A DNA stretch of 64,000 nucleotides from Haliotis rufescens (GCF_023055435.1 NW_025963779.1:88598001-88662000), one strand, 5' to 3'; counted from the stretch's first letter, positions 25,401-49,638 are shown. Numbers and translations are program-made. The notes: generated by a model not told the origin, from the letters alone.

Positions 25401-28400
25401 CCACCTGGACTACTGCCTCACCCCACCTGGACTACTGCCTCACCCCACCTGCACTACTGCCTCACCCCACCTGCACTACTGCCTCACCCCACCTGCACTA
25501 CTGCCTCACCCCACCTGCACTACTGCCTCACCCCACCTGGACCAGTTCCAGCTCCTGAACATGCCTCCCATTTTCAGGCGGGGTGAGGCAGCACCCCCAT
25601 CAAGTATACTGCTTATACACACTGACACATATGACACACTATGGCTGGATGATATTGAAGTACACTAATGTTTGTTTCACCCTCTGCCTTTTAATCAATT
25701 TATCCTGTCTTTTGTTTTGTTGTCTACAGTGTTTTTAACTTAATAATTAAATAAGCAGTTTGTGAAGTTATTATTGTTCTTTCGGTGATCGGCAGCCATT
25801 TTTTATGTGAAGACACAGTGATTTGTTAGAAGGTGTTATGAGTGTTGTTTGTGACAGGGGGAGAGCGAGGAGAGTAGCGAGCCGGTGGAGGAGATCCTGT
25901 CTGTCATGGAGGCAACAGAGGATGGAAAGTGGTTAGCAGACAAGTACGAGCTGCTCTGTCTGGGCAAGATGCCACCCAGTAGAAGACAGTCCCATGTCTC
26001 AACAGAGGTACAGTAATGAATCATGTAGCTTGGTGCCTTGTTTTGTTCATCCTAGACACACTATGCTTGTGACACTGTATGCTACTATTATGTCAATTTA
26101 TATAATCAAACACTTAGCGTTTTTTGTTTCTTAGTTATATAATTGCTGATAATAACAGGCCATTTATATTGCGCACATTTCCACACCACTCAGGGGCATG
26201 CTCAAAGTGCTAATATTACCCTGGTCAATGGATCAGTGTGCACTCAAAAATCATTCTCAGTATACAACCCAAGGTGCCTGTGAGGTGTTAGAAGGTTAAC
26301 AACCACATTGCCATCTCATCCTACCGGGTACCCACTCACTGCTGGGTGAACAGAGGCACATTTCATGCAAAGTCACTTGCCCAAGGAGACACCACATGTG
26401 TTGCATGTGCTTCAGTGTGGGACAGGACCGAAGCCCTGGAAGCTCTCAGGAGCCAAGCTGCCGAAACGCAGTCACCCATCCAAGGATTCTCCATGACCGA
26501 CGTTGCCTAACTTCACCTGATTTCATACACCTGATCCAATACAACATAAAGCGATATTTATTTGTTCCCTTATTCTATATTCAGGGGTGGTCATATGGAT
26601 AGTGGGTTATGACACAGAGGTCTGAGATTGATACACCACAGAGTAGAATAAGCTTGGTCTCCCATCGTGTTATAGGGTTGCTGTTTGCACTTCAATGATG
26701 GTTTCAGGAAACAGATGCACTAAACTCACTGATTGGCCAGTTGCTGGATGAGGGGAAGATTCGTGAGAGTTGCCAGGTGACCAGTGTCTTCCATCACTAC
26801 AGCCAGGACCTTGCCATCATCCTTGTAAGTAGACCTGTGAAGATCCAGGGTAGAATAGGTCTTCAGCAACCCATGCTTGCCATAAGAGGTGACTATGCTT
26901 GTCATATGAGACAACTAACAGGATCGGTTGGTCAGGCTCGCTGACTTGGTTGATGCATGCCATTGTATCCTAATTGCATGGATCGATGTTCATGACGTCA
27001 ATCACTGGATTGTCTGGTCCAGACTTGACTATTTACAGATTGCCATCATATAGCTGGAATAATGCTGAGTACAGCATTAAACAACAAACAAACTAACAGA
27101 TGTAAGTAGCATCTAGTTATTGAAGTATGCAGTTGTGTTTTTTTTATGTTTATCTTTTTCTAAAGTGCTGATTTTTGTGTGTTTCAGACATGTGTACGGT
27201 TGAGTAATGAAACTGTTACTCGAGAAACAATGGAGCCTGAGATTAGGCGTCTGCTGACAATAGACAGAAGGTCAAGGTCAAGCTTTGGCTCATTTTCTGG
27301 TTTTAGTCGCACAGCAAGTTGTAAGTAATAACTAGAAATGCTTAGTTCAGTTGTACCACTAGAGGGAGCTGTGGTGTTCAGTTGTACCACTAGAGGGAGC
27401 TGGGTAGTTCAGTTGTACCACTAGAGGGAGCTGTGTTGTTCAGTTGGACCACTAGAGGGAGCTAGGTAGTTCAGTTGGACCACTAGAGGGAGCTGGGTAG
27501 TTCAGTTGTACCACTAGAGGGAGCTGTGTTGTTCAGTTGGACCACTAGAGGGAGCTGGGTAGTTCAGTTGTACCACTAGAGGGAGCTGTGTTGTTCAGTT
27601 GGACCACTAGAGGGAGCTAGGTAGTTCAGTTGTACCACTAGAGGGAGCTGTGTTGTTCAGTTGGACCACTAGAGGGAGCTGGGTAGTTAGGTTGTACCAC
27701 TAGAGGAAGCTGGGTAGTTCAGTTTCCTTTTGTTTGTTTACTCTTGCACAATAAGACTGCAAGAGGGGCAGTGGGGTTGCCTAGTGCTTAAAGTGGTTAA
27801 AGCAGTCACTTGTCACGCTGAATACCCAGGTCCGATTCCCCACAGGGGTACATTGTGTGAATCTCCCCCACATGGGTACATTGTGTGAATCTCATTTCTG
27901 GTGTCCCCATCCGTGATATTGCTGGAATGTTGCTGAAAGCGGGATAAAACCACTCACTCACTCACTATTACCTCTAACTGAATGTAATGATGTTCCTTTC
28001 ACTTCAGCTGTGAGTCTGGCAACTGCCTCAACTTGGGACTTTCTGCCTGTTGAGAAGGAAGATGCCATTGTTGTCATGGAGAAGCTACAAGGGCATTGTA
28101 ACCATGGGCAACAGTGCTGTCTGAGGATAATCACCGCATTTAAAGTTGCATGTGTATGTATTGGAACAGGGGTTCAATCATAATTCAAAGCTTTTTAAAG
28201 CTCTTTTATTTGAATATTATTAATATAAAAAAAGAACACATAATGTGTTTACATGTACTTGATTTGTTTACAAATGCTTGATGTGTTTACAGGTGCTTGA
28301 TGTGGATTATGCGCAAGTCGTTAACAGAGAGGAGTTTTCCATCCTGGATGAGCTATTGCGGACATCGTATCCCCAGCGGTTTATCCTTGCCAGGGACTAT

Positions 28401-31400
28401 CTGAGCACCAGTTCATTGTCAGATGACCAGGTAGTTAAGATATTCCTATTGCATTATTGCTATTATATGTATTACATCGCCAAATTGGACGGCTTCATTT
28501 GTAGTTAGGCCAGGCATTGTTATATTATTGGCGAGACATGGAACTCACACATAGCTGGCCTCATGGCCACATACAAAGCATGGGATTGGAAAGGATTCTC
28601 TTTTTAGCTTGCGACAAATTGACTTTGAGGTGATACAATTTTATTTTCGTATTTTTTTTCAACAAACTAACTATTGTTTCTTATTTAGATTGAAGCATTT
28701 GCAATTTTCTTGGAACATATGCACCAATATCTATAAGATGATGGAATCCCAAAGATTAGAATTAACATATTTAAAATATGTGAGTTTGTCCTGATGAGAG
28801 AGATAATGTTTGTTGTTTCATTGTTTGTTGTGTCCAAGGTGGCCAGCTTCCTGTCTGTTTCAATCATCAAGGCTCTCAAGGTCAGCATGGGAGGGCAGTC
28901 AGGTCAAGGTCAGTGAATAGAGTGTCGAAACACTAATGAGTCACAGCACTTCATATAAGCTGTAATACATCTGAACAAATGAACTCCAATCTGTCCAGAC
29001 AATAATATGTTCCTTTATTATTGCGAGCAAGGAGAACTCACCTTTTTCACATTAATTTCATGCTTGCATTATTTAATGATTTATAGTATATCTTGTTAGG
29101 TTCTTGTTGTCACTTCTCAAATTTATCTCCAAATTTATCTCTAAGTTTTCTAATGCCTCAGAAATCTGATGTAATATATTCTTCTTAGTATAAAGGCCCC
29201 CAGCCCTCCAGATCTGATGTAATATATTGTTGTAGGTCATGTTTGACTGGTTGATATATTGTTGTAGGTCATGTTTGACCAGTTAATCTACAGTCAAGTC
29301 CTGTTAATCTGACGTGGTTGGTTGCATATGATTATGTCAGATTAACGAGTATGTCTGATAAACGAAATTAAGTTGTATCAGCGTTCGTGATCGAAAATCG
29401 GACAACTTCACGATAGATAAGGATGCAAACACGTTGTCATAAAAAAATGAGATATGAAATATTCATATTGTTATATTACATTGTTAGCAGAATATATTTT
29501 CTAATCATGCAAACTCTAAAGCTTAACACAAAACTACAGTTAGGGTGTATGACTGATTCAAGATATTTTAAAAAGCATAGTCTGGAATGGAAGTTGCCAG
29601 TTTGAAACTAGTGCCGCAAAGCTCAAGAAAGCTGCTTTCTTAGCAGTTAATGTCGACTCCCTGTTAGTCATTTCATTGGTCGGTCAAAGTTTGCGAAAGG
29701 TCGTTCTGACGTGATCAGTAATTGGATGTTCTCAGCGGTAGCGAGAACTTGTATCTGATTTTAATGATATTGAGGTAATCTAAGCATGTGATTAATCCTG
29801 TTTTGTTAATTTAAAGCCTTAAATGTTTATTGTTAAGCAAGTTTATCTCTGCAGCTGTTGTACTATGTAGCTATCAGCCGACTCGTCTCGCATCAAAACA
29901 CGGGGCTGTGTAGTCGCGGGCAGATGACCATGGATCACTGTGTAGGATTAACGAGACTGATTAATGAGTGATTTCGATGAAATTAGGTGTGTTGGAGTCG
30001 GAGTGCGAGATTAAGGGGTCTAAATAGCACTGATTTAATCGGTTCCTGTCATTAGTGTCAGATAAAGCCGAGTGTGAGATTAACGAGACTTGACTGAATT
30101 CTTATAGGTATGAAGGCCTCCAGCCCCCGAGACCTGATGTTCAACCCCATCGAGAGGATCTCCATGTTTGACCAGTTCATCAAGCTGTGTAAGGAACCAT
30201 CCCGTCTTGGGGAGAACCTGCTGGAGGCCTCCCTGGCCCTGGGCGACTGCTCCGACGACCTGCACTCCAGTGGCCAGAGTAAGACAACTATTCCTGTATC
30301 ATGAATACTCAGCAGTGTACAAGCTAAGGGTGACTGACAAGGGGCTCTTGTCATGGTGCTGGGGGCAGGGGTGGCCCAGTAGTCTAAGGCGCCACGACTC
30401 TCTGTGCAGAGTTGCATCCCTTGGGCACGCCAGAAACCTATGATTGTGGATTCGAATCCCGGTTCGCCCCGAATATGTTTCTAGGTTTGTCAGCACCTTA
30501 CCCGCACTCGTGGGTTTCACCAAAGTGGTAAACGTCTGAGACCTGCATCATTTCGGGCTTTCCTCCCACATTAAGCTGACTTGCCGCGATATAACTGGAA
30601 TATTGTTAAAAGCGGCGTTAAACCCACCTCACTCACTCACTGTCATAGTGCTAATGATAGATTTAGGGGTCCCAAGATCCAAATACAGTAGTCAAAGTGC
30701 TCTCTGATAGTGTGACAGCTATGAGAGTTAAAACAAAACTATTATCTGTAAGCTGTGTCATGTAACTACGTAATTTGATTCCTTCAGTCACAGCCATCCT
30801 GTTTATTTTATGCTAAAATATTAGTGAATCATTTGTCTACCAATCATCAATGTGAATGTATTTGTAATGATAACTAATTGGTCAAACCCTACACAAATCC
30901 AACAGTTGCCATGGGAACTGATTACCTAGAATATATGGAGCTTGATAGGTTTGATACGGCCACTTGTCCACAAGTGTTCATTTTGAAATCTGCCATCTGT
31001 CCACTGGTTCGAGATGAGCAAATGCTCCTATTTACAGTATCCCCTACAGCCCTCCCCTGACTGTCACACTGTAGCAATAGATATACAATGTACCACATTG
31101 TATTAGGGTGCCCACATCCGTCTGCTCACCTGTGTGTCTTGCTTGTAGCCCTGTCCATACAGACGGAGCTGATGATCATGGCGCACGACTGCCACACCGT
31201 GGCCTGCAACATGGAGGGCATCTCACACGTGCTGCGCGCTGCACGCATCTGCACCGACAGTCTCACGCATGCAGAGGAGTTCTCCCTGATGGTAATACAG
31301 AGAACAGCTGCCATGGTGGCATCTCTGCATGAACTGCAATTAGGAGATAAACCTACTGTGTTTTGAAACTTGATTTAATTCCACTATAAAATAATAAATA

Positions 31401-34400
31401 ACAAACACGCTTATAACAAACTGCATATATAACAAACTGTTTTCTTAGTCCTGTCCATATGCTATATGTATGCTAATAACGAACTACGGTTATAACAAAA
31501 TTAAAATAGTTGCCCTTTCAAGTTTGTTATAGCCGTAGTTTATTGTACCCCTTATTTTAATTTTGGACGAGCGTTTCAGGAGATCAAGGGTAGTACATTC
31601 CTAGCAACTAATGAGATCAAGGATCTTTCAGTTTTTTATAGATGATGCCTGACAAATGTCACTGTTCAAGATGACAAATGCAACATGCTCTGCCAATCTT
31701 TGTTTCAGATTCGGCTGCTGACTGGAGTGGGCCGGTTCAATGAGATGACATATATCTTTGATGCCTTGAAACTCCACCACAAGTTTGAACTGCTGCTGGG
31801 GAAAGGGATGGAGAGGGTATGTACACAGCCATAATCTACCTGCATCTGGACCATGGATGTCCTTAGCCATGCCAGGATCTGCTGATACACAGATTCACAT
31901 GCGATTCTGACCCTTGGTCTGTCAGCTCCATACCTGTATTTGTTGGATTCATCGAAGTCATCGAAGTCATCGAATTCACTCACTCACTCACTCACTCACT
32001 CACTCACTCACTCACTCACTCACTCACTCACTCACTCACTCACTCACTCACTCACTCACTCAGAAGATCTAAGTTAGAATTGGCCTTCAGCAGCTCATGT
32101 AAGAGGCGACTAGCAGATTGAAGGCAACATAACAGATTGCCTTAAAAGGTGATTATGCTTTTCGTAAAAGGCGACTCTGCTTGTCGGGATCGGGTCGTCA
32201 GGCTCACTGACATAGTTGATGCATGTCATCATATCCCAGTTGCATAGATCGATGCTCATGATGTCAATCACTGGATTGTCTAGTCCAGACCCAATTATTT
32301 ACAGACTGCCTTCATATAGTTCGAATATTGCTGAATGCTGCATTAAACAACGAACAAACAAAGAAACAAAAACTATTATACTAAAATCTACGGAAATTAT
32401 TACCCGTGCGCAGTTCAGATTTATGCTGTTGAAAGGCTGCAGAAACTTCTTCCCTGCCCACTGTTTGATCATGATGTCATGTGTGCCTCTATATTGTGTG
32501 TAAAAACATTATCTGGGAATCCTGAAAGAGTTGGTGTTTGTTCCTGCCAGGGCGACAACTTGAAGACGGCAGTACTGGACTACCTGAAGCGCTTCCACCC
32601 CGAGGACAAGGACAGCTACACCATGGTGGCTCACAAGTTCATGATGCATCGCGAGATAGCTCACATGCTGGAGGAGTATGGCTGCCGGAACCTGAAGGCC
32701 CTCAAAGACAAACCCTTAGGTAGGGAGGAAGGGGGACATGGTTAGGTTGATAAAGTCTCGTTCATCTGGGTCCATGATTTGAAACAACTGTAGGTCTGTC
32801 AGTGGTTTCAAAGTCTCTACAGAATGTCCTTGACATTGAACTACCGTCATAGTGTTAAGAGAGTGCAGCTGCTGTGCAGGGTTTTATGTCTGTTTTTCTT
32901 GTCTGTGATGTAAACACTTGTCTGAGAGTTACAGCTGCATCAGTCAATAGGGATCCAGCCGGTCAGAGACATTTGATCTTACCATAACTACCGGTAACGT
33001 CCAAGCATGCTGAGACTAAAATGTTAACTCTGCACCTATTGTCTTCTGAACTCACTGAATGTTTTGCACATGACAGGAGATAAAAGTGTCATGTGTTCGT
33101 TTTTTCAACCACATTGAATTAAGTCTTATGTTGTTCTCGAGTGATAGTGTCACACTGTGAAGTGTGGAGCTCTCAACCTCTCAAGCTATTACTGTATTTT
33201 ACATTAAATTTGAAATTCTATTGCTTAAAACTGCGACCATATCATAATCCAATGTAAGGAAAAGTAATGGCCACATACTGTTTGATACAAATGTGCAAAA
33301 TGCCATCAATATTACAAACTAAAGTGGTGCAACTGCAGCCCAAGGGAGATAAGTCAGTAAGGCGTTGTCTGTACTCAGGGCCGGTGTCAGTGAGAGACTA
33401 CACGGAGTTACGGATTATCGTATTATCTGTCCTGAGTGATTTAATGTTGTAAGTTCCGAGTGTTCACAAGTTGCAAGATGTTAAGTCTTACACAGATACA
33501 TGCAATGTGTCTCATTTGTAAGGTAAAGAACGAAAGATGACATCATCTTTAATTGTTTGCAGTAATGTGGTCACATGATGTCATGTTACTGTAAACCTCT
33601 TTGCAAGCAATGGATCTATCAACATGCAGCAAACATGTTAATGCTCACAGAGAATAACTGAAATAATTTTGCCAATATCTGTGGCCCATGGACGAAAAGT
33701 TCTTTTCGACACATAGATCAACGTTCTTCAAAACCAGTTAGTCAGATCAAAATGTTTAATTGTCATAATTTTAGAAACCTTAACGCTCCGTGAGCTGAAT
33801 CTATTGTAGGATGTACCATGTAGCAGTACACGGGCCTGTATTTTGATAAGAATGTATGGAGAATCTTGGTATTAAATATATCAACACGAGTCAATAAAAG
33901 TTTGACATCTGTTTGAAGAAGTAGCAGATTCTTTGAGTTGGCAACCAATCTGTTTTCTTTACATCTGACAGAGAACACGCGAGATATCCAGGAGAATCTT
34001 AAAAGAAGCGCCCAGTACTTCTCCGATGCTGCTGAAAGCTACGTTAAGGTACATGGTGCTGTCTGTTCTATTAAGGAGACTGACTATTGTGGGCAGTGGA
34101 ACAGCTGTTGCAGTACTATTCATGTCCCCACAATGCAGATTTCTCAACTTTATTTAGAATGGTGTCAAGCCCAACCTAAGATGTTCATTTTAGTATCGTT
34201 TATTTCCTAGGCACAGACCATCTATCAGTAAATGCCTTATAAAATGTTATATTATATAATAAAATATATTATCCACGATAATATTCCAGCATTAAAATAT
34301 AGTTAAACACTATTTTGTCAAACTTTGATATGTCAAATAAAAACTTGGTCCCTGCGCATTCTTTCTTTATTCATCATTTTACGGTTGTGTCGAACTTCGG

Positions 34401-35725
34401 ATAACTTGAAGTATGTCCTGTCAACTTCGACACAACGGTGTTTGACTGTATTTGAACTTTGACTTTTAACATCTGAATGTGCACATTTCCTAGTGCATGT
34501 GATAAGCAATGTTTCAACCGTCATAGTTGGAATATTGAGTGCAGCATGAAACATGGAAATAAACAAAGCTATATATTGTGATGAATTATAAATATTCTTT
34601 TTAATGTCCAAGAAGCTAACATTTGCTACTGCTTTCAGGACAGCTGTCTCCGTCATGCACATCAGTGTCTGCGTCAAGCGCGTCTGCTGGAGCTACAACT
34701 TCAGCACCTGTCGTCAGGGGTCCAGGTCGTCAACCTCTCCCCAGAGGGCGTGACAGCCCTCATCTCACAACACCCCAAGTTTGTCGAGGTATGACTAGGA
34801 AAAATATGAAAATTGTTTTGTTTTATTTTTCAAAGTTTATATACATACATATTCCTTTCTAGTGATTATCGTCGTGTGTATCGTTATATATGTGCAATAT
34901 TTGAGATTGCTTCAATGACTTCATATTCAGACTGGGCAGGGGGCTAGCCTGATTACTTGGCCCCGCTATGATGTGGTGTGGATATTGCTAAAGACTGCAT
35001 GAAGCCAAACTCATTCATGTAGCAGCTTCTTATTTTCAGTCCCTGATTGTCAGTGAGGCTTATGGGAAACGTGCCAACTGGTCTGAGGCCATCTATTACA
35101 ACATCATCCTGAACGGCGACTTCCGCTACCTCCAGGATCTTCGGTCACACATTCGCCTCACAGCTCCCATGATACAGGAGGCCATAAACAGGTACACCCC
35201 AGCATTGCTGCACAGGGGTTACATGTATTTCCAATAGACTTTGTTTCCACGATACACAACTTTATGTAGTGATACTGTTATATCGATACTTGGATCATAT
35301 TATGATATGTATTGTGATACCTATATAATACAGGAGTATTCATGAATGGAATTTGGAGAAACGTAGTACACATGATCTCTATGATGGGGTCTCGATTGCA
35401 TCAACATTTGGGTCACCAGGTAATGTGAACTAAAGGTTATTTAATTCAAACTGCAGACAATTCTTATGAACTAATCCTAATCGATAACAAGTAACGAGAG
35501 CAAGCAACAAGATCACCTGTGTATTATGTTTCCAGGTTCCAGCAGTCAGCAAACAACGCCCCACAACAACAACACATGAACAACATCAAGAAGTTGTTGC
35601 CGTTCTGCAAGGATGTACGGTTGCAGTACAACATAGCAAAGGATCTGCAGCTGAATGACGTTGTTACCTCAATGTTGAAGAATGACTCGTGGAACTATCT
35701 GACAGACATCGTCGCCATGTCGTAG
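1215..35725 (+). CDS. SPG11: Spatacsin (SPG11) orthologue, 3' portion, 32 coding exons (5' end outside window)
   Basis: Exons 1215-1418, 2661-2755, 4219-4364, 4691-4846, 6153-6219, 7940-8111, 10329-10555, 14066-14174, 14913-15072, 16413-16608, 17634-17717, 18251-18402, 19270-19464, 20922-21029, 22322-22505, 22981-23195, 24312-24449, 25199-25357, 25858-26007, 26708-26824, 27188-27320, 28008-28153, 28293-28430, 28839-28908, 30108-30278, 31149-31291, 31709-31816, 32551-32719, 33972-34048, 34639-34788, 35040-35191, 35536-35725. All are GT-AG with matching phases (sum 4681 nt = 1 + 1560 codons including stop). Recognisable spatacsin motifs: [77 protein letters not shown]. Confidence 0.93.
2083..2637. 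repeat. 25/18-bp minisatellite (tagtgaggtgtaggtattgaatgat)
   Basis: Direct inspection. Confidence 0.95.
2661..2755 (+). CDS. SPG11: SPG11 exon (LQLDKID...ICRNPD)
   Basis: tag| ... |gtaaca, phases 2/1. Confidence 0.85.
3076..3577. repeat. 33-bp minisatellite, about 15 copies
   Basis: gatcacatactgaaatccttctggggatgtttt. Confidence 0.95.
3815..4153 (+). mobile_element. tRNA-derived SINE family D (Meta-type central domain); second copy 56375-56612 (-)
   Basis: gtagagcg..gggtttgatgcc..gtcataccaaaagatgttaaaagatggtacttg..cctggcgctcagca; two dispersed copies. Confidence 0.8.
4219..4364 (+). CDS. SPG11: SPG11 exon (SEAVYQASL...PLHQ)
   Basis: ttttccag| ... |gtatga; QASL motif. Confidence 0.9.
4691..4846 (+). 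CDS. SPG11: SPG11 exon (NSDVLR...[10 protein letters not shown]...YQLLM)
   Basis: tttcag| ... |gtgggt, 52 codons. Confidence 0.9.
4955..5212. repeat. 128-bp tandem duplication including a SINE 5' junction
   Basis: tcatctgtcc at 4961 and 5089; two near-identical copies. Confidence 0.9.
5665..5815. mobile_element. Palindromic MITE-like element
   Basis: aatcttaccc..tgtcttttgatatcaa..gttgataaaagtg ... cacttttatcaac..ttgatatcaaaagaca..gggtgagatt. Confidence 0.65.
6153..6219 (+). CDS. SPG11: SPG11 exon ([22 protein letters not shown])
   Basis: cttcag| ... |gtaggc; conserved DPxRLFGWQ. Confidence 0.92.
6230..7800. repeat. 21-bp minisatellite, about 75 copies
   Basis: cacacatcacatgatataata; source of the 567/549-aa pseudo-ORFs. 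Confidence 0.97.
7940..8111 (+). CDS. SPG11: SPG11 exon (CQRLLPYFS...GRPTYAF...NKR)
   Basis: cgcag| ... |gtaggt. Confidence 0.92.
8500..8596. repeat. 11-bp tandem repeat inside an inverted-repeat element
   Basis: (ttca[t/a/c]ctggta)n. Confidence 0.85.
9000..10150. repeat. 32-bp minisatellite, about 36 copies
   Basis: atatagactggtgcattatagctgataatgat. Confidence 0.97.
10173..10310 (+). mobile_element. SINE family A
   Basis: Same head and tail as 59552. Confidence 0.75.
10329..10555 (+). CDS. SPG11: SPG11 exon (INTVCGV...ACVAFVEM...EEEV)
   Basis: ttccag| ... |gtaagt. Confidence 0.9.
10968..11158 (+). mobile_element. SINE family B (internally deleted), runs into the 37-bp array
   Basis: gtggcccagtcgtctaaggcgccgc...gggttcgaatcc. 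Confidence 0.85.
11157..13093. repeat. 37-bp minisatellite, about 52 copies, highly homogeneous
   Basis: tgagactcaaaccccatgtcaccagtcagcaccacac. Confidence 0.97.
13381..13783 (+). mobile_element. Degenerate composite SINE (A-like head, B-like body)
   Basis: ggggcggt... head, ttgaatcc..tttctaggttt..gacctgcatcact, (ACTC)n tail. Confidence 0.6.
13968..14044. repeat. poly-C, (CA)n and (CACT)n simple repeats
   Basis: Direct inspection. Confidence 0.9.
14066..14174 (+). CDS. SPG11: SPG11 exon (DLLLNC...KKGIN)
   Basis: tacag| ... |gtcggt, phases 1/2. Confidence 0.85.
14913..15072 (+). CDS. SPG11: SPG11 exon (TSFDAAHQW...[10 protein letters not shown])
   Basis: cccag| ... |gttcgt; WLxF...QLH motif. 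Confidence 0.9.
15073..15567. repeat. 30-bp minisatellite starting at a splice donor
   Basis: gtcattcgtgtaacactcagtactgatgat. Confidence 0.95.
16012..16116. mobile_element. Palindromic MITE-like element
   Basis: gtcgttgtttat.g.acaataaaa.actgc ... gcagtattttattgtacaataaacaacgac. Confidence 0.65.
16413..16608 (+). CDS. SPG11: SPG11 exon (LQGLLHQF...LSKGR)
   Basis: atcag| (alternative in-frame AG would start at 16419) ... |gtaggt. Confidence 0.8.
16706..17584. repeat. (CCA/T)-rich low-complexity repeat with two assembly gaps (N 16828-17261, 17409-17584)
   Basis: ccacccatccaccaacc units and N runs. Confidence 0.95.
17634..17717 (+). CDS. SPG11: SPG11 exon (NASSDEED...DQSQP)
   Basis: cctcag| ... 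|gtgagc, phase 1/1. Confidence 0.75.
18251..18402 (+). CDS. SPG11: SPG11 exon (DLTLTED...LAACQQ)
   Basis: ttgtag| ... |gtatag. Confidence 0.88.
19270..19464 (+). CDS. SPG11: SPG11 exon ([11 protein letters not shown]...GFDIFQT)
   Basis: ttcag| ... |gtaagt. Confidence 0.9.
20217..20900. repeat. 52-bp minisatellite, about 13 copies
   Basis: gttgacctacagaatgacagccgatgtgactgagctcgttcaaccaatattt. Confidence 0.96.
20922..21029 (+). CDS. SPG11: SPG11 exon (YSPLLPF...DAMSN)
   Basis: tttcag| ... |gtaatt. Confidence 0.88.
21438..21770 (-). mobile_element. SINE family B with a nested SINE family A (21518-21691)
   Basis: TSD actttggtga at 21508-21517 and 21692-21701. Confidence 0.8.
22043..22217. mobile_element. 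Short TA-flanked MITE (related copy at about 31385-31547)
   Basis: ta-cagtaaaa ... tttactg-ta with internal ttataacgaac repeats. Confidence 0.75.
22322..22505 (+). CDS. SPG11: SPG11 exon (YREGRR...VFSFD)
   Basis: ttgcag| ... |gtatga. Confidence 0.87.
22981..23195 (+). CDS. SPG11: SPG11 exon (PDYSRL...ITLKE)
   Basis: gacag| ... |gtagca. Confidence 0.88.
23745..23860. mobile_element. Palindromic (fold-back) MITE
   Basis: ggatccacttgcacaaagcg.tcttagcgctaaga ... tcttagcgctaagatcgctttgtgcaagtggatcc. Confidence 0.75.
24312..24449 (+). CDS. SPG11: SPG11 exon (MLTEKE...RFWRSC...DFFK)
   Basis: tttcag| ... |gtaaga. Confidence 0.88.
25199..25357 (+). CDS. SPG11: SPG11 exon (LEAETID...QMWHCRI...QQK)
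   Basis: ttcag| ... |gtaaca. Confidence 0.87.
25389..25542. repeat. 22-bp tandem repeat, about 7 copies
   Basis: actactgcctcaccccacctg[g/c]. Confidence 0.93.
25858..26007 (+). CDS. SPG11: SPG11 exon (GESEES...VSTE)
   Basis: gacag| ... |gtacag, 50 codons. Confidence 0.8.
26160..26500 (-). mobile_element. Degenerate CORE-type SINE
   Basis: Minus strand ccttgggcaagtgacttt..gcctctgttcacccagc.gtgagtgggtacc; tail ctttgagc..gtgcgcaatataaatg. Confidence 0.6.
26708..26824 (+). CDS. SPG11: SPG11 exon ([16 protein letters not shown]...AIIL)
   Basis: tttcag| ... |gtaagt; LIGxLLDxG motif. Confidence 0.92.
26832..27097 (+). mobile_element. SINE-like family C (other copies 1444-1655, 14545-14790, 32062-32365, 37260-37520, 46321-46481, 55633-55801, 60849-61074, 7798-7900 partial)
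   Basis: cc.gtgaagatcc.gg.tagaa.aggtcttcagcaacccatgc..taagaggcgacta..ggtcaggctcgctgac..ctggattgtctggtccagact..(AAAC)n tail. Confidence 0.85.
27188..27320 (+). CDS. SPG11: SPG11 exon (TCVRLS...RTAS)
   Basis: tttcag| ... |gtaagt. Confidence 0.88.
27343..27723. repeat. 31-bp minisatellite, about 12 copies, each carrying CCACTAGAGGGAGC
   Basis: gttcagttg[t/g]accactagagggagct[gggta/gtgtt]. Confidence 0.95.
27764..27965 (+). mobile_element. SINE family A (internal duplication)
   Basis: Same head and tail; cccacatgggtacattgtgtgaatctc duplicated. Confidence 0.8.
28008..28153 (+). CDS. SPG11: SPG11 exon (VSLAT...CNHGQQCC...KVAC)
   Basis: cttcag| ... |gtatgt. Confidence 0.88.
28293..28430 (+). CDS. 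SPG11: SPG11 exon (VLDVDY...LSDDQ)
   Basis: ttacag| ... |gtagtt. Confidence 0.88.
28839..28908 (+). CDS. SPG11: SPG11 exon (VASFLS...SGQ)
   Basis: ccaag| ... |gtcagt (alternative donor after 28902 has the same phase). Confidence 0.78.
29291..30096. mobile_element. Tc1/pogo-type non-autonomous element with CAGTCAAGTC TIRs
   Basis: TA-cagtcaagtcctgttaatctgac ... gtgagattaacgagacttgactg; repeated subterminal gattaacgag motifs. Confidence 0.75.
30108..30278 (+). CDS. SPG11: SPG11 exon (MKASSP...[11 protein letters not shown]...SGQ)
   Basis: ttatag| ... |gtaaga. Confidence 0.88.
30361..30640 (+). mobile_element. SINE family B with TSD
   Basis: Near-identical to 57376-57650; TSD tgtcat(g/a)gtgct. 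Confidence 0.9.
31149..31291 (+). CDS. SPG11: SPG11 exon ([14 protein letters not shown]...FSLM)
   Basis: ttgtag| ... |gtaata; start of the conserved spatacsin C-terminal region. Confidence 0.93.
31709..31816 (+). CDS. SPG11: SPG11 exon ([18 protein letters not shown]...GMER)
   Basis: tttcag| ... |gtatgt; highly conserved motif. Confidence 0.95.
31975..32062. repeat. (CACT)n microsatellite
   Basis: Direct inspection. Confidence 0.95.
32551..32719 (+). CDS. SPG11: SPG11 exon ([14 protein letters not shown]...DKPL)
   Basis: gccag| ... |gtaggg. Confidence 0.93.
33972..34048 (+). CDS. SPG11: SPG11 exon (NTRDIQ...DAAESYVK)
   Basis: gacag| ... |gtacat. Confidence 0.92.
34639..34788 (+). CDS. 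SPG11: SPG11 exon (DSCLRHA...PKFVE)
   Basis: tttcag| ... |gtatga. Confidence 0.92.
35040..35191 (+). CDS. SPG11: SPG11 exon (SLIVSEAY...GDFRYL...AIN)
   Basis: ttttcag| ... |gtacac. Confidence 0.92.
35536..35725 (+). CDS. SPG11: SPG11 terminal coding exon (FQQS...IVAMS*)
   Basis: ttccag| ... TAG at 35723-35725. Confidence 0.9.
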
Positions 35726-37547: not shown

Positions 37548-40500
37548 TCAGGTACCAACATAACAACATCTCATCCAGGTACCAGCACGGTAACAATATC
37601 TCAACCAGGTACCAACATCTCATCCAGGTACCAGCACAGTAACAATATCTCAACCAGGTACCAACACGGTAACAACATCTCATCCAGGTACCAGCATAAC
37701 AACATCTCATCCAGGTACCAGCACGGTAACAATATCTCAACCAGGTACCAACACGGTAACAACATCTCATCCAGGTACCAGCATAACAACATCTCATCCA
37801 GGTACCAACACGGTAACAACATCTCATCTAGGTACCAGCACGGTAACAACATCTCATCCAGGTACCAGCACGGTAACAACATCTCATCCAGGTACCAGCA
37901 TAACAACATCTCATCCAGGTACCAACACGGTAACAACATCTCATCCAGGTACCAGCACGGTAACAACATCTCATCCAGGTACCAGCATAACAACATCTCA
38001 TCCAGGTACCAGCACAGTAACAATATCTCAACCAGGTACCAACACGGTAACAACATCTCATCCAGGTACCAGCATAACAACATCTCATCCAGGTACCAGC
38101 ACAGTAACAATATCTCAACCAGGTACCAACAAGGTAACAACATCTCATCCAGGTACCAGCATAACAACATCTCATCCAGGTACCAGCACGGTAACAATAT
38201 CTCAACCAGGTACCAACACGGTAACAACATCTCATCCAGGTACCAGCATAACAACATCTCATCCAGGTACCAACACGGTAACAACATCTCATCTAGGTAC
38301 CAGCACGGTAACAACATCTCATCCAGGTACCAGCACGGTAACAACATCTCATCCAGGTACCAGCATAACAACATCTCATCCAGGTACCAGCACAGTAACA
38401 ATATCTCAACCAGGTACCAACACGGTAACAACATCTCATCCAGGTACCAGCATAACAACATCTCATCCAGGTACCAGCACGGTAACAATATCTCAACCAG
38501 GTACCAACACGGTAACAACATCTCATCCAGGTACCAGCATAACAACATCTCATCCAGGTACCAACACGGTAACAACATCTCATCTAGGTACCAGCACGGT
38601 AACAACATCTCATCCAGGTACCAGCACGGTAACAACATCTCATCCAGGTACCAGCATAACAACATCTCATCCAGGTACCAGCACAGTAACAATATCTCAA
38701 CCAGGTACCAACACGGTAACAACATCTCATCCAGGTACCAGCATAACAACATCTCATCCAGGTACCAGCACGGTAACAATATCTCAACCAGGTACCAACA
38801 CGGTAACAACATCTCATCCAGGTACCAGCATAACAACATCTCATCCAGGTACCAACACGGTAACAACATCTCATCTAGGTACCAGCACGGTAACAACATC
38901 TCATCCAGGTACCAGCACGGTAACAGCATCTCATCCAGGTACCAGCATAACAACATCTCATCCAGGTACCAGCACAGTAACAATATCTCAACCAGGTACC
39001 AACACGGTAACAACATCTCATCCAGGTACCAGCATAACAACATCTCATCCAGGTACCAACACGGTAACAACATCTCATCTAGGTACCAGCACGGTAACAA
39101 CATCTCATCCAGGTACCAGCACGGTAACAACATCTCATCCAGGTACCAGCATAACAACATCTCATCCAGGTACCAACACGGTAACAACATCTCATCCAGG
39201 TACCAGCACGGTAACAACATCTCATCCAGGTAACAGCACGGTAACAACATCTCATCCAGGTACCAGCATAACAACATCTCATCCAGGTACCAACACGGTA
39301 ACAACATCTCATCCAGGTACCAACATGGTAACAACATCTCATTCAGGTACCAGCACGGTAACAACATCTCATCCAGGTACCAGCACGGTAACAACATCTC
39401 ATCCAGGTACCAGCATAACAACATCTCATCCAAGTATCAACATGGTAACAACATCTCATCCAGGTACCAGCACGTTAACAACATCTCATCCAGGTACCAA
39501 CACGGTAACAACGTCTCAACCAGGTACCAGCACGGTAACAACATCTCATCCAGGTAACAGCACGGTAACAACAACTCAACCAGGTACCAACACGGTAACA
39601 ACATCTCAACCAGGTACCAGCACGGTAACAACATCTCAACCAGGTACCAACATAACAACATCTCATGAAGGTACCAGCACGATAACAACATCTCAACCAG
39701 GTACCAACACGGTAACAACATCTCAACCAGGTGCCAACACGGTAACAACATCTCATCCAGGTAACAGCACGGTAACAACATCTCAACCAGGTACCCACAT
39801 AACAACATCTCATGAAGGTACCAGCACGGTAACAACATCTCAACCAGGTACCAACACGGTAACAATATCTCATCTAGGTAACAGCACGGTAACATATCAT
39901 CTCATCCAGGTACCAACACGGTAACAACATCTCAACCAGGTACCATCATAACAACATATCATCCAGGTACCAGCACGGTAACATATCATCTCATCCAGGT
40001 ACCAACACGGTAACAATATCTCATCCAGGTACCAACACGGTAACAACATCTCAACCAGGTACCATCATAACAACATCTCATCCAGGTACCAACACGGTAA
40101 CAACATCTCAACCAGGTACCAGCACGGTAACAACATCTCATCCAGGTACCAGCACGGTAACAACATCTCATCCAGGTACCAGCATAACAACATCTCATCC
40201 AGGTACCAACACGGTAACAACATCTCATCCAGGTACCAGCACGGTAACAACATCTCATCCAGGTACCAGCATAACAACATCTCATCCAGGTACCAGCACA
40301 GTAACAATATCTCAACCAGGTACCAACACGGTAACAACATCTCATCCAGGTACCAGCATAACAACATCTCATCCAGGTACCAACACGGTAACAACATCTC
40401 ATCTAGGTACCAGCACGGTAACAACATCTCATCCAGGTACCAGCACGGTAACAACATCTCATCCAGGTACCAGCATAACAACATCTCATCCAGGTACCAA

Positions 40501-42650
40501 CACGGTAACAACATCTCATCCAGGTACCAGCACGGTAACAACATCTCAACCAGGTACCAACACGGTAACAATATCTCATCTAGGTAACAGCACGGTAACA
40601 TATCATCTCATCCAGGTACCAACACGGTAACAACATCTCAACCAGGTACCATCATAACAACATATCATCCAGGTACCAGCACGGTAACATATCATCTCAT
40701 CCAGGTACCAACACGGTAACAATATCTCATCCAGGTACCAACACGGTAACAACATCTCAACCAGGTACCATCATAACAACATCTCATCCAGGTACCAACA
40801 CGGTAACAACATCTCAACCAGGTACCAACATAACAACATATCATCCAGGTACCAGCACGGTAACATATCATCTCATCCAGGTACCAACACGGGAACAACA
40901 TCTCATCCAGGTAACAGCATGGTAACAACATCTCAACCAGGTACCATCATAACAACATCTCATCCAGGTACCAACACGGTAACAACATCTCAACCAGGTA
41001 CCAACATAACAACATATCATCCAGGTACCAGCATGGTAACAACATCTCAACCAGGTACCAACACGGTAACAACATCTCATCCAGGTACCAACACGGTAAC
41101 AACATCTCAACCAGGTACCAACATAACAACATATCATCCAGGTACCAGCACGGTAACATATCATCTCATCCAGGTACCAACACGGTAACAACATCTCATC
41201 CAGGTAACAGCATGGTAACAACATCTCAACCAGGTACCAACACGGTAACAACATTTCAACCAGGTACCATCATAACAACATCTCATCCAGGTACCAACAC
41301 GGTAACAATATATCATCCAGGTACCAGCAGGGTAACATATCATCTCATCCAGGTACCAACACGGTAACAACATCTCATCCAGGTAATAGCACGGTAACAA
41401 CATCTCAACCAGGTTCCAACACGGTAATAATATCTCATCCAGGTAACAGCACGGTAACAACATCTCATCCAGGTACCAACATGGTAACAACATCTCATCC
41501 AGGTAACAGCACGGTAACAACATCTCATCCAGGTACCAGCATAACAACATCTCATCCATGTACCAGCATGGTAACAACATATCAACCAGGTACCAACATG
41601 GTAACAACATCTCATCCAGGTACCAGCACGGTAACAATATCTCAACCAGGTACCAACATAACAACATCTCATCCATGTACCCGCATGGTAACAACATATC
41701 AACCAGGTACCATCATAACAACATATCATCCATGTACCAGCATGGTAACAACATCTCAACCAGGTACCAACATGGTAACAATATCTCATCCAGGTACCAG
41801 CACGGTAACATATCATCTCATCCAGGTACCAACACGGTAACAACACCTCATGAAGGTACCAACACGGTAACAACATCTCAACCAGGTACCAACACGGTAA
41901 CAACATCTCATCCAGGTACCAACACGGTAACAACATCTCATCCAGGTACCAACACGGTAACAATATCTCAACCAGGTACCAACATGACAACATCTCATCC
42001 AGGTATCAGCATGGTATCAACATCTCATCCAGGTACCAACACGGTAACAATATCTCATCCAGGCACCAACACAGTAATAATATCTCAACCAGGTACCAAC
42101 ATGACAACATCTCATCCAGGTACCAACACGGTAACAATATCTCATCCAGGTACCAACATAACAACATCTCTACCAGGTATCAACACAGTAATATCTCAGA
42201 CTAAGTATACGGCGTCCGGGTGGTGTATTCATGTTGATCTGCGGAATGGTATCTCGGAGGGCGAGAACTATATAATCGTTATGAGTACTTAAAAATCAAT
42301 AACATCACTAGGTACCAACATAGCAACGTCTCATCCAGTTACCAAACTGACAACAACATCCCACCCAGGTACCACCATGAAAATAACATCACCAGGTACC
42401 AACATAGCAACATCCCACCCAGGTACCAACATGGCAACATCTCTTCAAGGTACCAACATGATAACAACATCACCAGGTACCAACATAGCAACATCTCATC
42501 AAGGTACCAACATGGCAACATCTCTTCCAGGTACCAACATGACAACAACATCACCAGGAACCAACATGACAACAACATCTCTTCCAGGTACCAACATGGC
42601 AACATCTCTTCCAGGTACCAACATAGCAATGGCATGCTGTCAGGTACCTA
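37548..42650. repeat. 5-kb intergenic 30/27-bp satellite array (GGTACC in each unit) with a 291-bp higher-order unit
   Basis: ggtaccagcacggtaacaacatctcatcca; rare tctagg variant recurs at 38293, 38584, 38875. Confidence 0.97.
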
Positions 42651-43189
42651 TGGATGCTGAACGTCGTTGTTGTCATGAGATACATACTGATATCTAAAAA
42701 TGGACTTGGCAAACAAAATAGCCAAAAGATTAAATTGTTATCATGAAAGCTACACAAAATTCATGATTGTTACTTGTTATATATAATTTCAATTTAACCA
42801 TGTATTTTGTTGACCTTATGATACACCTATAACCTTTTATCATCATCTTTTTGTTGATAATAAAATTACACGATTATTCAATATCTAAACATAAGAAAAT
42901 GTCCTCTGTATTGGTTTATGAAAACAAATGTTTCATGACAATTTGTATTTTTTCCGAACCTCCCCCTCCAAATGTGTCAGTTGTCATGGTGACCCTGGCA
43001 ATCCTCTCTGATAATTTTGCATGTAATAAATGTCTGATACCACAGTATTTATACTTGGATATCAATCATCAACATTATAGTAACCTTATCATTTATAAAA
43101 CAAATATTTCAGTCCTGTCAAACGTCATTCGAGTAAGAGATCTGCAAAGCCTATCTTAGATAAGTACCAGTGATAAACAAGGCGACAGT

Positions 43190-43383
43190 CAGAAATAGGC
43201 AGTGTTCGGTGAGGTTGGTCACGTTGACCCGGTCATACCCTTCACCTCTGACCTGTCTGACCTAGATGTGAACCCACACTTGAACCCGGTAACGGCCTTG
43301 ACATTTATCGGGAATTGAACCATTTTCTCTCGAAGGCCAAGGGTCAAATTGTGTTTTAGACGCAGCTTTCGTCCACGGTAAGT
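43190..43383 (+). promoter_or_regulatory. Probable promoter/non-coding first exon of the zinc-finger gene
   Basis: Locally CpG-richer unique sequence ending in a strong donor CG|GTAAGT at 43377/43378; candidate acceptor tttctttgccag| at 49302; dense AGGTCA-type half sites. Confidence 0.5.
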
Positions 43384-46300
43384 CGTTTAAAACGCTTTAG
43401 GTAGCTTGTATTGATCTGTAGCGTGTAATAGAGACGTGTTTTAGTCGTTTTGACTTCTGTTAGTATCGACACAGAAACGAGGTCAACCTCCTCACTCTCG
43501 CAGTCACTCCGATGCCGTGTTGGGCGCACATCGTTTATTGGTGTTGATAAACAAGAGGAGACAATTTCCCAAATCGTTTAATTCAGTATCAGTTGTTATC
43601 GATTGTACCGTGTATTTCTGATACATAATCACAATGTGTTACACATAAGGGTCACATTATATAATTTATATCTTCCTCGGCGTATAACGAGGTATATATC
43701 TGCATTATGTGACAAGGTCTCCCGACTAGCGGCGATGTGGTCCGCCAAGCATGTTACAGTCAGGTGTGACAGTTCATTTTATACCCCTGTATAATTAAAT
43801 GCCCCGTATATTATGTCAGTACAGTCATACCAACGTTTAGGTTTCATTTTGTAGTTGAATAATCACACCATAACGTCCACTCTAATTATAGATACCCTTG
43901 AATTTGTAGCATATATGACACTACATGCAAAACAAGGTTAAATGCACATTATGGTAATTTTAATAATATGAATGATTAGAAATAAGCCTTTATTAAATTT
44001 TCCCCTTAAAATGTTCATTACAATGAGTGTTTTTTATTTATTAAATTCTGTCTGGTTCAAGGCCAGTCTGTTACCACGAGGGTCGCAGTCTATACATATA
44101 CATATCTAGGTAATATATGTCAGACTTTCACACCATTCAACTTGGCCCTCACATGGAGCTAGAAATGTCAAATTCTCTGTCAAAGGTATAATTCCTGTTG
44201 ATCAGCTGATTGAATATTCCGTAGCTCGTTATACCAGTAAATTAACTGCATGACTATTGTTCATCGTGTTTCTTCCTGTTTCCACCTGATCACGTTACTG
44301 TATCATGTGTATTGGGAATGAAAGTAGCTACCACACTTAAAATCATTTGTTCAAGTCCTTGCGCATTGTAATGTAATTCAGTGATCGAAATTGAGAGTGC
44401 TCTTTGAAATCTTAAGGCTAGGGACCTCTAAATCTGTAGCGTTTAACGTTTGGTTTTATGACCAGGACCCCTTGACTGTCATGCTAATTTCAAACACTTT
44501 AAATAATTCATTTCTTCCATTTTATTTTTCAAGTCATTGTTTGATGTGTATGAGTTCATCGAACGATTTCGTCACCTACAATAGTGCATTCAGTTATATT
44601 ATGTATTTAGTGATGAAAAACAATGTTTAGAAAATATAGAATCTAAGACTTTCATTCTACCTTAGTGACACTAAATGTATACATGGTACAAAAGATAATT
44701 CAGAAAACTAATAATACCTGTAATTTGTAAATAGAATATTTGTCATTTCTTGTCAAATAATCATTTTCCCCATCCAGTGACCAGTGACTTGATGTTTTCA
44801 AGAATAGCTCAATTGTCACAACAGTGCTCTATTATTTTATAATATGGGATGATAGTGAGGTATCTGCTTTTTACCTTTTTAACGCTGCAAATAAAACGAG
44901 GTGTAATCACATGCTTTTGTGATCCTGCTCTATGCGTACACTATGTGGCATAATGTGTGAGCCAAGTTTCCAAATATTTTCAATAGAAGCATGTGTATTG
45001 TGTGAATTGTGGAATGTAATTTTAATAACAAGCCTCAAGATTTGGAAACTGCTGTGTATTGTGACCATGCACCATTGCTAGAATCACTACCGATTCCCGG
45101 GGCACGGGACACTGGTTAGGCGCACCTAGGTGACGTCATCGTTAAAGCTGGTTAGTTTTCTTGTCTGATTCAATCCTAAATAGAAGCTTTTCTCTGCCTC
45201 TGTGGGAACACTTTTCCAAACATGTTGAGTTTTCTCAGTAAATGTGTCGCATCTGGACAAGAGCATCGAATACGAAATTTGTAAGTTGGAAGGACTTCCT
45301 AAATTATTGCGTAACATTTATTGTGTTTATTGTGTAAAGTCTGTGACACAATTCAGAATCCTGGTCAGCAAAGCGACCGACCATGTGATATTCTTTGGAC
45401 ATGCCTAGGATTTTATCTAAAAATAAATATTGTCTGTGAAAAAGAAACTGACTGCCACAATAACTACATTGTTGCTAAGGTGTTTTTAAAAAAATAAATA
45501 ATTCAGGCTCATAGATTTAAATAAAAAAATATCTGGGTTTTCCAGCTGAAGCAGTCAGTCCCTAAAGCCCAGGCCCTCTAATATGCATTATGGAAATGGA
45601 ACAGGGGAAGCATTGCCAAGCAATGGGACACTTCAAAGCTTTGTGTTTTCAGGGTCTGTCCTAAGTTATCCTAGGGTAATTCAGCTAATCAGTTGATTAT
45701 TAATCCTAGGTTTTCATAATCAAATCCATATTTTGTTTGTTTTTTATAAGAGATAAACCTACTGTGTTTTCAACATACAGCTGTGTTACCTGTACATTTA
45801 ACAGAGCTAAATTGAAATTAGAACTGAACATGCTGTATATCTATTCTAAGTAAAACACAAACTCTTTGCAAATGTTTATTGAGCATGTTGAGTGAGGCGG
45901 CATAGGATGAATCTATTGTTTTGAGTGGGTTGTTGATCTGAATTACAGAACAACACCTGCCTTTAAACAAAATAAGCTGCTGCATATTCTCCAGCATTTC
46001 TGTGCCACCACTACTTAAGATCACACGATAGGCATTAAAGAGCAAGTAAAGTGAAAAAGATGTTTACTGTTTTGTTGCGAATATCAATATTCCTAGATAC
46101 ATTTAGTTAATTTCCCAAAGAAAAAAATTCAAACTATTCGTAGAAAGTATTTAAATGTCATAGTGATAGTGCAGAAATAACAAGCTCTGCAATCCAGCTT
46201 CCAAAATAAACCTGTTTGGGGGCATGGCATAAGCTACTGGCGCAGCGTTGACAACTGCTTTCATTGGCTGATAGGTTTGCAACGTTTTTCTATCTTGTGA

Positions 46301-47186
46301 CTCTCAGCCATTATGCATATACTCGCTGACTTGGTTTATGCATGTTATTGTAACCCAATTTCGTGGATTGATGCTCATGATATCAGTCACTGGATTGTCT
46401 GGTACAGACTCGATTATTTATAGACTGCCATCATATAGCTGGAATATTGCTGAGTGTGGCGTTAAACAATAATCAAACAATAATTTCTGTTAGACCTACA
46501 AAAATAACAACATTGCATACATTGATCATTGTGTAAAATTACCTTTGATCTTGACATTGTGAATAATTAAAATAGCAATTAACAGTTGGTAAATAGCATT
46601 TAATTACTAACATCCTTTTTGGGTAATAAAACACCAGTTGCCCTTGGCCCTATTCCACACAATAAATGTCTGTCTAGGGATAAATCCCCTGAGTAAACAA
46701 CTGAAGGCATCTTCAGTGTTGTTCCTAAGGTGACATAAGTTGTGGACACGGTAATCAAATAGAAGAGCAGACAGAAAAAGACATGTATTAAACCATCCAA
46801 GGCAGAAGCAGGCAGACTGAACATAGGCCTGATCATCATGATCTTTGACATTGTGTCGCACATCAAGCAGCAGAAACATGTTTTAACCTCCTGTAAGAGG
46901 ATTCCCCCTACTGGGGGAATTTTTCGTATAGGGGATGATTTCATGTCTCCTTTTTATTGCCTTTTTTATGCTATTTCCGATTTTCAAGTTTAATTTTGGT
47001 CGAATATTTGCAAGAGTGGCAAAACCAGTATCAGAAATCAGAAATCAAACTGTAATCTAAACCAGGTGCTCCAAAAGGCACTCAAAAAAGCAAACATCCT
47101 TCATAAATAAAAAATAAAAGGGCAATAAAATCAAATTACAGAAAGGACACACTAAACTAAACTCTCACCTACACAAAATCAGAAAA

Positions 47187-47187
<1 letters not shown>

Positions 47188-47260
<73 letters not shown>
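47188..47260. repeat. (CT)n microsatellite
   Basis: Direct inspection. Confidence 0.95.
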
Positions 47261-47262
<2 letters not shown>

Positions 47263-47263
47263 G

Positions 47264-48444
47264 CATGTAGATCAGCTGCAGTCCATCCCACTTGGCAGAC
47301 GTCCGACATGTAGATCAGCTGCAGGCCATCCCACTTGGCAGATGTCTGACATGTAGATCAGCTGCAGGCCATCCCACTTGGCAGACGTCTGACATGTAGA
47401 TCAGCTGCAGGCCATCCCACTTGGCAGACGTCCGACATGATGATCAGCTGCAGGCCACCCCACTTGGCAGACGTCCGACATGTAGATCAGCTGCAGGCCA
47501 TCCCACTTGGCAGATGTCTGACATGTAGATCAGCTGCAGGCCATCCCACTTGGCAGATGTCTGACATGTAGATCAGCTGCAGGCCATCCCACTTGGCAGA
47601 CGTCTGACATGTAGATCAGCTGCAGGCCATCCCACTTGGCAGACGTCCGACATGTAGATCAGCTGCAGGCCACCCCACTTGGCAGACGTCCGACATGTAG
47701 ATCAGCTGCAGGCCATCCCACTTGGCAGATGTCTGACATGTAGATCAGCTGCAGGCCATCCCACTTGGCAGATGTCTGACATGTAGATCAGCTGCAGGCC
47801 ATCCCACTTGGCAGATGTCTGACATGTAGATCAGCTGCAGGCCATCCCACTTGGCAGACGTCTGACATGTAGATCAGCTGCAGGCCATCCCACTTGGCAG
47901 ATGTCCGACATGTAGATCAGCTGCAGGCCATCCCACTTGGCAGATGTCTGACATGTAGATCAGCTGCAGGCCATCCCACTTGGCAGACGTCTGACATGTA
48001 GATCAGTTGCAGGCCATCCCACTTGGCAGATGTCTGACATGTAGATCAACTGCAGGCCATCCCACTTGGCAGACGTCTGACATGTAGATCAGCTGCAGGC
48101 CATCCCACTTGGCAGACGTCTGACATGTAGATCAGCTGCAGTCCATCCCACTTGGCAGACGTCTGACATGTAGATCAGCTGCAGGCCATCCCACTTGGCA
48201 GATGTCTGACATGTAGATCAACTGCAGGCCATCCCACTTGGCAGACGTCTGACATGTAGATCAGCTGCAGTCCATCCCACTTGGCAGACGTCTGACATGT
48301 AGATCAGCTGCAGGCCATCCCACTTGGCAGATGTCTGACATGTAGATCAGCAGCAGGCCACCCCACTTGGCAGACGTCTGACATGTAGATCAGCTGCAGG
48401 CCATCCAACTTGGCAGACGTCTGACATGTAGATCAGCTGCAGGC
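47264..48444. repeat. 43-bp minisatellite, about 27 copies
   Basis: catgtagatcagctgcaggccatcccacttggcagacgtctga. Confidence 0.97.
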
Positions 48445-49195: not shown

Positions 49196-49638
49196 GATGG
49201 GAGAATATTCTGTGTTAGGATGTATGTTTCTAAGAAAAATACACAAAAACAGCTGATCTTAGAACATGTAATAATTGCTGTTTCTTTTGTTTTCTTTGCC
49301 AGGTAGTGACGTGTAATAACAGGATGGGCTGCAATCCTATTCTCGGTGAACGTTGGAGATGGTGATGTGGTGTGTCCTTGTTTCTCCCTACCATGAATAA
49401 TCAGATGGACAAAGCTAGGCAACCACACAATGTAAACATTAGCTGGTGAGGAAAACCACATCAGATGGAAATATGCCTTCAAGAAGATAAACATGATATG
49501 AAAATAAGCTTTGAGTTAGTATCCTTGAGACAACAGCACAAGGAGTAACAGTTTCCAATACATACAAACTTCAAAAGTCTGGATATAGGTGTGGGAAGAT
49601 CTGTAGATGTGGTAAATGCCAATCGATTCTGATCAAAG

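Follow-up and report, generated by a model that had tools for sequence, protein, structure and literature searches.

A tandem array of 31-bp units in an intron of a likely SPG11 gene of Haliotis rufescens carries, in almost every unit, a match to the core of the CTCF motif, which raises the question of whether the array is a working cluster of CTCF sites or a repeat whose unit merely resembles one. A preliminary description had proposed a functional anchor or pause array. From our analysis of the whole 64,000-nucleotide stretch of DNA (the window) and of the genome around it, the rather more probable answer is an ordinary intronic minisatellite with a good CTCF core match, at some units of which binding by host CTCF is predicted; such binding would probably be incidental, not a function under selection.

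Tandem Repeats Finder resolves the array into 12.3 copies of a 31-bp period at 27343-27724, with 89% matches and no indels. The core CCACTAGAGGGAGC is present in 11 of the 12 units at exact 31-bp steps beginning at 27356, and the core of the twelfth differs by one change, so that the preliminary description of about twelve co-oriented 31-bp units was accurate. The array and its surroundings are as follows (window coordinates):

27343..27724, + strand: minisatellite of 31 bp x 12.3, free of CpG, a single locus in the assembly
27356..27679, + strand: eleven co-oriented CTCF core matches CCACTAGAGGGAGC in 31-bp steps, 18.4-20.1 bits
27697..27710, + strand: degenerate core of the last unit, with A in place of G at core position 11, 14.0 bits
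27321..28007, + strand: GT-AG intron of 687 nt holding the array, from splice signals and frame
27188..27320, + strand: upstream coding exon of the likely SPG11 gene, 133 nt, with AG acceptor, GTAAGT donor and an in-frame exon chain
28008..28153, + strand: downstream coding exon, 146 nt, with AG acceptor, GTATGT donor and frame kept
31148..35198, + strand: five exon matches to Spatacsin_C (PF14649), E 1e-12 to 8e-7, all above cut-off

Along the array the unit types run A B A C D A E A C A E F, for the most part as 62-bp dimers. In four places C or E comes directly after A, which suggests growth in 62-bp blocks as well as by single units. The co-orientation of the cores was rejected as evidence of function, since it is automatic in head-to-tail repeats.

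The array starts 22 nt past the first base of the GTAAGT donor at 27321, and four neighbouring exons, all with GT-AG boundaries, can be joined into one reading frame free of stops. The Spatacsin_C exons lie on the same strand, 3.8 kb downstream of the upstream coding exon, at the only locus of this family in the genome. Because the short flanking exons themselves match no Pfam family or PDB chain, the name SPG11 comes from contiguity with these downstream exons; the gene hosting the array is likely SPG11. Thus, of the earlier statement that the repeat begins about 22 nt after an SPG11 donor, the position and the donor were confirmed, and the gene name follows by contiguity only.

A DNA search of the assembly, by a method that skips common words, returned no second copy of the unit, and an exact-word search of the genome no second array, so a dispersed satellite family was rejected. 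The suggested search for further arrays of this unit was therefore negative, although unrelated arrays carrying the CTCF consensus do exist (see below). The array contains no four G3 runs within 12-nt loops that would indicate a G-quadruplex. On either side of the exon and array lie two very high-copy interspersed repeats, at 26832-27098 and about 27766-27955, whose contig depths add up to millions. A 28-bp duplication at 27838-27893 is present as a single copy in a contig of run X6, which shows a 28-base gap, and is thus likely polymorphic.

Motif scores were computed with an approximate form of JASPAR MA0139.1, a vertebrate matrix that in this form may differ from the print version and from the specificity of the host protein. 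Scores on this matrix are 18.4-20.1 bits for the eleven intact units (p 1e-7 to 3e-7), compared to 14.0 bits for the last unit. About fifteen other, unrelated minisatellites are found in the window at 2086-25539 and 37608-48444, tandem repeats covering 23.5% of its length. None of these minisatellites has a site of at least 17 bits, nor does the remainder of the window, and 570 kb of sampled genome contain two such sites. As sequence, the array unit is a good CTCF core match. The mouse beta-globin site bGm5, listed as a reported high-affinity CTCF site in the section of PMC5167347 drawn on here, scores 16.6 bits on the same matrix, below the intact units. Of the 14 bases of the core, it has the first 12 in common with the unit, the A at position 12 among them; the base at -1 is shared as well. 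bGm5 is, however, a single mammalian site with reported binding, whereas the array consists of predicted tandem sites in an invertebrate. The claim that the unit closely fits the CTCF core therefore holds. A comparison with host sites is less favourable: 30 sites chosen by the canonical consensus score 17.8-27.0 bits (median 22.7, same matrix), placing the array units at their low end. The bases flanking the unit core fit the same canonical host sites, which have a base other than C at -1 in 29 of 30 cases and T at +1 in 16 of 30.

The 18 bases before each core, inspected by eye at the usual spacing, contain no upstream motif for fingers 9-11. As the footprint of the 11-finger protein is also longer than 31 bp, full occupancy of every site is unlikely. 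The upstream motif is nevertheless optional, as the portion of PMC10287918 consulted gives about 6000 of 48137 peaks. Our literature searches returned no paper on the exact 14-mer as a genomic site, the sole match being a probe that ends in synthetic stem bases.

These scores and the likeness to bGm5 would suit a selected CTCF array, in which tandem amplification would have produced a Pol II pause site or a constitutive CTCF/cohesin barrier, tunable by copy number, with effects on chromatin contacts or SPG11 splicing, and the intact CTCF of the host (see below) agrees with it. The low rank of the units among the host sites and the lack of the upstream motif at that spacing argue against it, and on the evidence as a whole we consider such a selected array unlikely. 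According to the parts of PMC5167347 that describe the assay, DNA-bound CTCF blocks cohesin movement in vitro, which speaks for such a barrier, but blocking was seen in 41 of 56 cases with a single site and in 34 of 40 with four, so that extra copies add little there. Squid domain boundaries are enriched in CTCF motifs (PMC10658182), which is in favour of a selected role. On the other side, directionality was not identified in squid (PMC10658182, PMC13652810), and motif orientation is without pattern at echinoderm boundaries (PMC13317027), each as stated in the passages cited. Thus, an oriented anchor of the vertebrate type is not to be assumed.

The host CTCF is encoded by a single open frame of 841 amino acids with 11 fingers (G000:C79, about 642-644.5 kb; L096 100-2625), and its best PDB match is human CTCF (E 3.7e-108). 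At helix positions -1, 2, 3, and 6, read from the alignment, fingers 3-5 are identical to human at 12 of 12 contact positions and fingers 6-7 at 3 of 8. The assumption that CTCF is conserved in this host is therefore well founded, and the identity of fingers 3-5, together with unit scores above that of the reported high-affinity site bGm5, supports the bindability of the units. Upstream of finger 1, the host protein reads FDF at the place of the vertebrate YDF cohesin-contact motif. The locus L029, considered as host CTCF from PF23611 alone, was rejected as another zinc-finger gene, the CTCF locus being one of 12 PF23611 matches.

The canonical consensus CCASYAGRKGGCRS, with C at position 12 (C type), occurs at 1233 genomic sites, compared to 111 for the reversed pattern and 179-489 expected under Markov models of order 0-4. 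This indicates that the canonical CTCF motif is in use in the host genome and, with a vertebrate-type consensus enriched 2.5- to 11-fold, that host specificity is near that of vertebrates. Sites with A at position 12 (A type), the class of the SPG11 array, are in no clear excess, numbering 762 vs. 1483 for the reversed pattern and 259-602 expected, and these matches include repeat copies. The exact 14-mer of the array is found at nine places outside it, two of them in a Tc1-like repeat, vs. 2.5-5.9 expected. This Tc1-like transposon repeat (L065 1130-1694; also L016, L017, L066, L067, L078, L081, L082, and L085), whose match to DDE_3 (E 5e-5) is below cut-off, carries an A-type CTCF-like 14-mer in its coding sequence and thereby spreads that word through the genome; seven of the 29 fetched A-type loci are copies of the repeat. 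A derivation of the array from this repeat, suggested by the likeness of the two 14-mers as seen by eye, was not adopted.

The array could also be an unbound look-alike, a pure-chance match within a nucleosome-covered repeat of a methylated gene body, with fingers 6-7 possibly reading the 5' half of the core in a different way. The identity of these two fingers to human at only 3 of 8 contact positions is in line with this, as is the occurrence of the commonest A-type word among the fetched loci in Tc1-like coding sequence, and intermediate-affinity sites are context-dependent in vivo in the part of PMC13701538 cited. The enrichment of the vertebrate-type consensus and the score of the unit above that of bGm5 argue against it, and eleven copies raise the odds that at least one is bound. 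We regard an unbound repeat as improbable, and hold to a bindable but neutral minisatellite.

How exceptional such a repeat is depends on the number of minisatellites in the genome (1.33 Gb), which we estimated from 57 evenly picked 10-kb stretches (570 kb). Tandem repeats cover 19% of this sample, and 48 arrays with a period of 19-49 and at least four copies extrapolate to about 112,000 genome-wide (bootstrap 84,000-145,000). By chance, 2.2-6.5 of these arrays are expected to have a unit with the consensus allowing C or A at position 12 (C type 1.0-3.0, A type 1.2-4.0), and 3-7 minisatellites a unit of at least 18 bits. The match is thus beyond chance locally, in the window and the sample, but not clearly so genome-wide. 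The same expectation would also suit an unbound look-alike.

A census of two exact consensus matches 5-35 bases apart, with two control patterns (reversed and permuted), yielded 128 pairs, of which about 127 were examined and fall into 16 loci, 11 of C type and five of A type, with two of the latter sharing one unit. The reversed control yielded four loci, all A-type, and the permuted control 30 pairs in two unit families, likewise all A-type; the reverse of the permuted pattern gave 24 pairs. C-type arrays are therefore in excess (11 vs. 0, p 0.0005, and 0 in both controls). A-type arrays, the class of the SPG11 array, are not clearly so (5 vs. 4 reversed loci, p 0.5, and vs. 2 permuted unit families). 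The eleven canonical arrays are:

G000:C35:7323801-7332230 (L187, L188): the largest, with a 39-bp unit, about 225 copies, 8.8 kb, and 119 exact canonical matches
G000 C35:25.02M, C112:57.63M, C223:47.77M, C246:1.69M, C334:32.46M (among L189-L200): five other canonical arrays, unrelated
G000 C368:2.26M, C556:15.31M, C556:60.16M, C583:55.26M, C594:18.67M (among L189-L200): five more canonical arrays, unrelated

Since both the canonical motif and the canonical-motif arrays are enriched, some CTCF-motif arrays are not due to pure chance, a point in favour of selected arrays. However, C-type arrays exceed expectation by about 4- to 11-fold, which is similar to the excess of single C-type sites (2.5- to 11-fold). 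Random seeding of minisatellites in DNA where CTCF sites are already present would give such a result. A broader reading holds that CTCF sites have repeatedly been amplified into working minisatellites in this genome, the SPG11 array being an intragenic cluster whose allele-varying dose may tune contacts or splicing; this, too, we consider unlikely. The amplification signal is carried by the eleven canonical arrays and not by the SPG11 array. Four further minisatellites with units of 29, 38, 37, and 27 bp (L042, L127, L128, and L129) match the consensus in some units only and thus appear to drift into and out of it; they were left out of the 16 loci, for which two adjacent exact matches were required.

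If the core were under selection, it should vary less than the spacer. In the window allele, it is invariant in 11 of the 12 units and the spacer is variable, with one core event among seven to eight by hand count (p 0.06-0.10), which favours a selected array. Further core changes are found in contigs from other runs, namely at 27369, at 27547, 27548, and 27550 (one unit), and at 27581, compared to one new spacer change at 27343. In the pooled hand count, four to six of 12-14 events fall in the core, which fits its 14/31 share of the unit (p 0.30-0.54). Across motif arrays, core columns are less variable than spacer columns in three of the 14 analysable arrays (of 16), the SPG11 array included, and in two of the three analysable control arrays; this is a rough test, as the ungapped tiling mis-set several units with indels and dropped the twelfth unit of the SPG11 array. 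The functional anchor or pause array of the preliminary description is thus disfavoured by an A-type class at chance level, no core conservation across arrays, and core-breaking units in other runs.

Both junctions of the array are found in contigs of all five runs (X1, X2, X6, X8, and X12), which carry three organism labels and come from four studies. Word depth within the array exceeds that of its flanks in X6 (up to 643 vs. 29-47), X8 (292 vs. 27-33), and X12 (69 vs. 25-29), an excess of which the window allele explains at most 5-fold. These figures hint that length or composition differs between alleles, bearing in mind that word depth is not copy number and that no contig spans the array, and the array is probably polymorphic.

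Several side arguments for function did not hold up. The 31-bp period had been read as about three helical turns that place all sites on one face of the DNA, but at 10.5 bp per turn each unit shifts the phase by -17 degrees. We rejected one-face phasing, as the drift over the 11 steps of the array is -189 degrees at 10.5, -76 at 10.4, and -299 at 10.6 bp per turn, and this drift also weighs against a selected array. Periods of 30-33 bp are found in 11 of the 48 sampled minisatellites. The array does lack CpG, as had been argued (none in 382 bp), a property shared by the units of 29 of the 48 sampled minisatellites; its substitution is at position 12, whereas the methylation-sensitive CpG of the CTCF core is at positions 2-3 and not at 12-13 in the section of PMC10287918 cited. 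Position 12 as a methylation escape was therefore rejected. A C>A change, moreover, is not a deamination product. The flanks of the array have a CpG o/e of 0.35, compared to a median of 0.69 in random 2-kb pieces, which suggests a methylated gene body and not a promoter.

A neutral minisatellite that CTCF likely can bind would, judging from the sequence, have arisen as follows. Near the start of the intron, a piece of 31 bp would have been duplicated and would have grown in 31- and 62-bp blocks, likely by slippage and unequal exchange. The seed may have been a weak pre-existing CTCF site or a chance match, with nearly even chances for the two. Fingers 3-7 of host CTCF would grip a unit, which we consider likely in vitro, while the chance of some CTCF occupancy of the units in vivo appears to be slightly below even. 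The twelve sites would not all be fully engaged together, given an 11-finger footprint of more than 31 bp, and units would come, go, and be broken with no visible sign that the core is selected. The invariance of the core in the window allele, the enrichment of the canonical motif and of canonical arrays, the presence of the junctions in runs with three organism labels, and the host-like flanks of the unit are points against this explanation.

A different origin involves the segment directly before the array:

27317..27342, + strand: end of the exon, with the splice donor and the 22 bases that open the intron, showing a weak likeness to a decayed unit 0 (post hoc)

The unit may be a copy of the exon end and donor that lost donor strength and drifted to a CTCF-like word, in which case the array would exert any effect via cryptic 5' splice sites. 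When the junction segment is aligned to the unit, AGTTGT, ACTAGA, and GCT are shared in the same order; 51 of 3000 shuffles score as high, as do 59 of 3000 random 26-mers. Moreover, AGGTAGTT, which is found in two units (27464 and 27619), is the word of a real donor at 28429 in the same gene. There is a precedent in the 37-bp VNTR of human F7 intron 7, in the part of PMC1557585 cited, likewise a minisatellite with donor-like words and a 5' splice site at its start. However, 15 of 237 surrogate donors align equally well (p about 0.06), the left-flank z of 1.8 is inside the range of 44 sampled arrays, and the idea was formed after the sequence had been seen. A first unit across the exon-intron boundary thus has p 0.017-0.063 by three controls, a weak and post hoc likeness. 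In F7, as that part also describes, the junction lies within the first unit and the donor is repeated exactly, in contrast to the weak likeness here (p 0.02-0.06), and the downstream pseudo-donors are normally silent. We consider a duplicated splice junction very unlikely, and a minisatellite that grew from an intronic piece remains our preferred explanation.

Arrays of this kind are already known from mouse DXPas34, which consists of head-to-tail monomers of 30-34 bp, each described with a CTCF site, and in which copy and site number differ between related species (PMC3149622, passages on the repeat). The SPG11 array is similarly composed of short tandem monomers with a CTCF motif per unit (each in DXPas34, 11 of 12 intact here) and, by this analogy, would work, if at all, like DXPas34. 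In the same passages, however, DXPas34 is rich in CpG, is located next to the Tsix promoter, and has retained a motif in mouse, rat, and voles, whereas the SPG11 array is CpG-free, lies in an internal intron, and has no clear sign of core selection. DXZ4, ICCE, and the SLC6A4 VNTRs are also CTCF-associated tandem repeats, some of them intronic (SLC6A4 Stin2), according to the excerpts consulted of PMC3491370, PMC6125249, and PMC2848977. The units of DXZ4 differ in their size of 3 kb and in being located at superloop anchors with chromatin data, compared to the predicted sites of the SPG11 array. Literature searches run without the gene name found no publication on this locus, and one on minisatellites in the presumed host genus gave nothing relevant.

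If the array is neutral, it serves as a warning, as a few of roughly 100,000 minisatellites will carry strong co-oriented CTCF matches by chance, and CTCF-motif arrays thus need a genome-wide null. If, in contrast, the SPG11 array or the larger canonical arrays are bound, they would offer naturally graded doses of CTCF sites in an invertebrate. A 2023 review counted just one spiralian species with 3D genome data (PMC10658182, in the passage cited). If CTCF sites have indeed been amplified, the natural alleles would allow the role of CTCF to be addressed in this lineage. The canonical arrays elsewhere in the genome, and above all the 8.8-kb array on C35, are better targets for such work than the SPG11 array.

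Beyond the SPG11 locus, the window contains an open frame of 1291 amino acids with C2H2 zinc fingers on the + strand (49633-53505), and exon-like matches to Beta-lactamase (PF00144) and DUF3471 on the - strand (56707-63547), which likely represent one spliced gene of that family.
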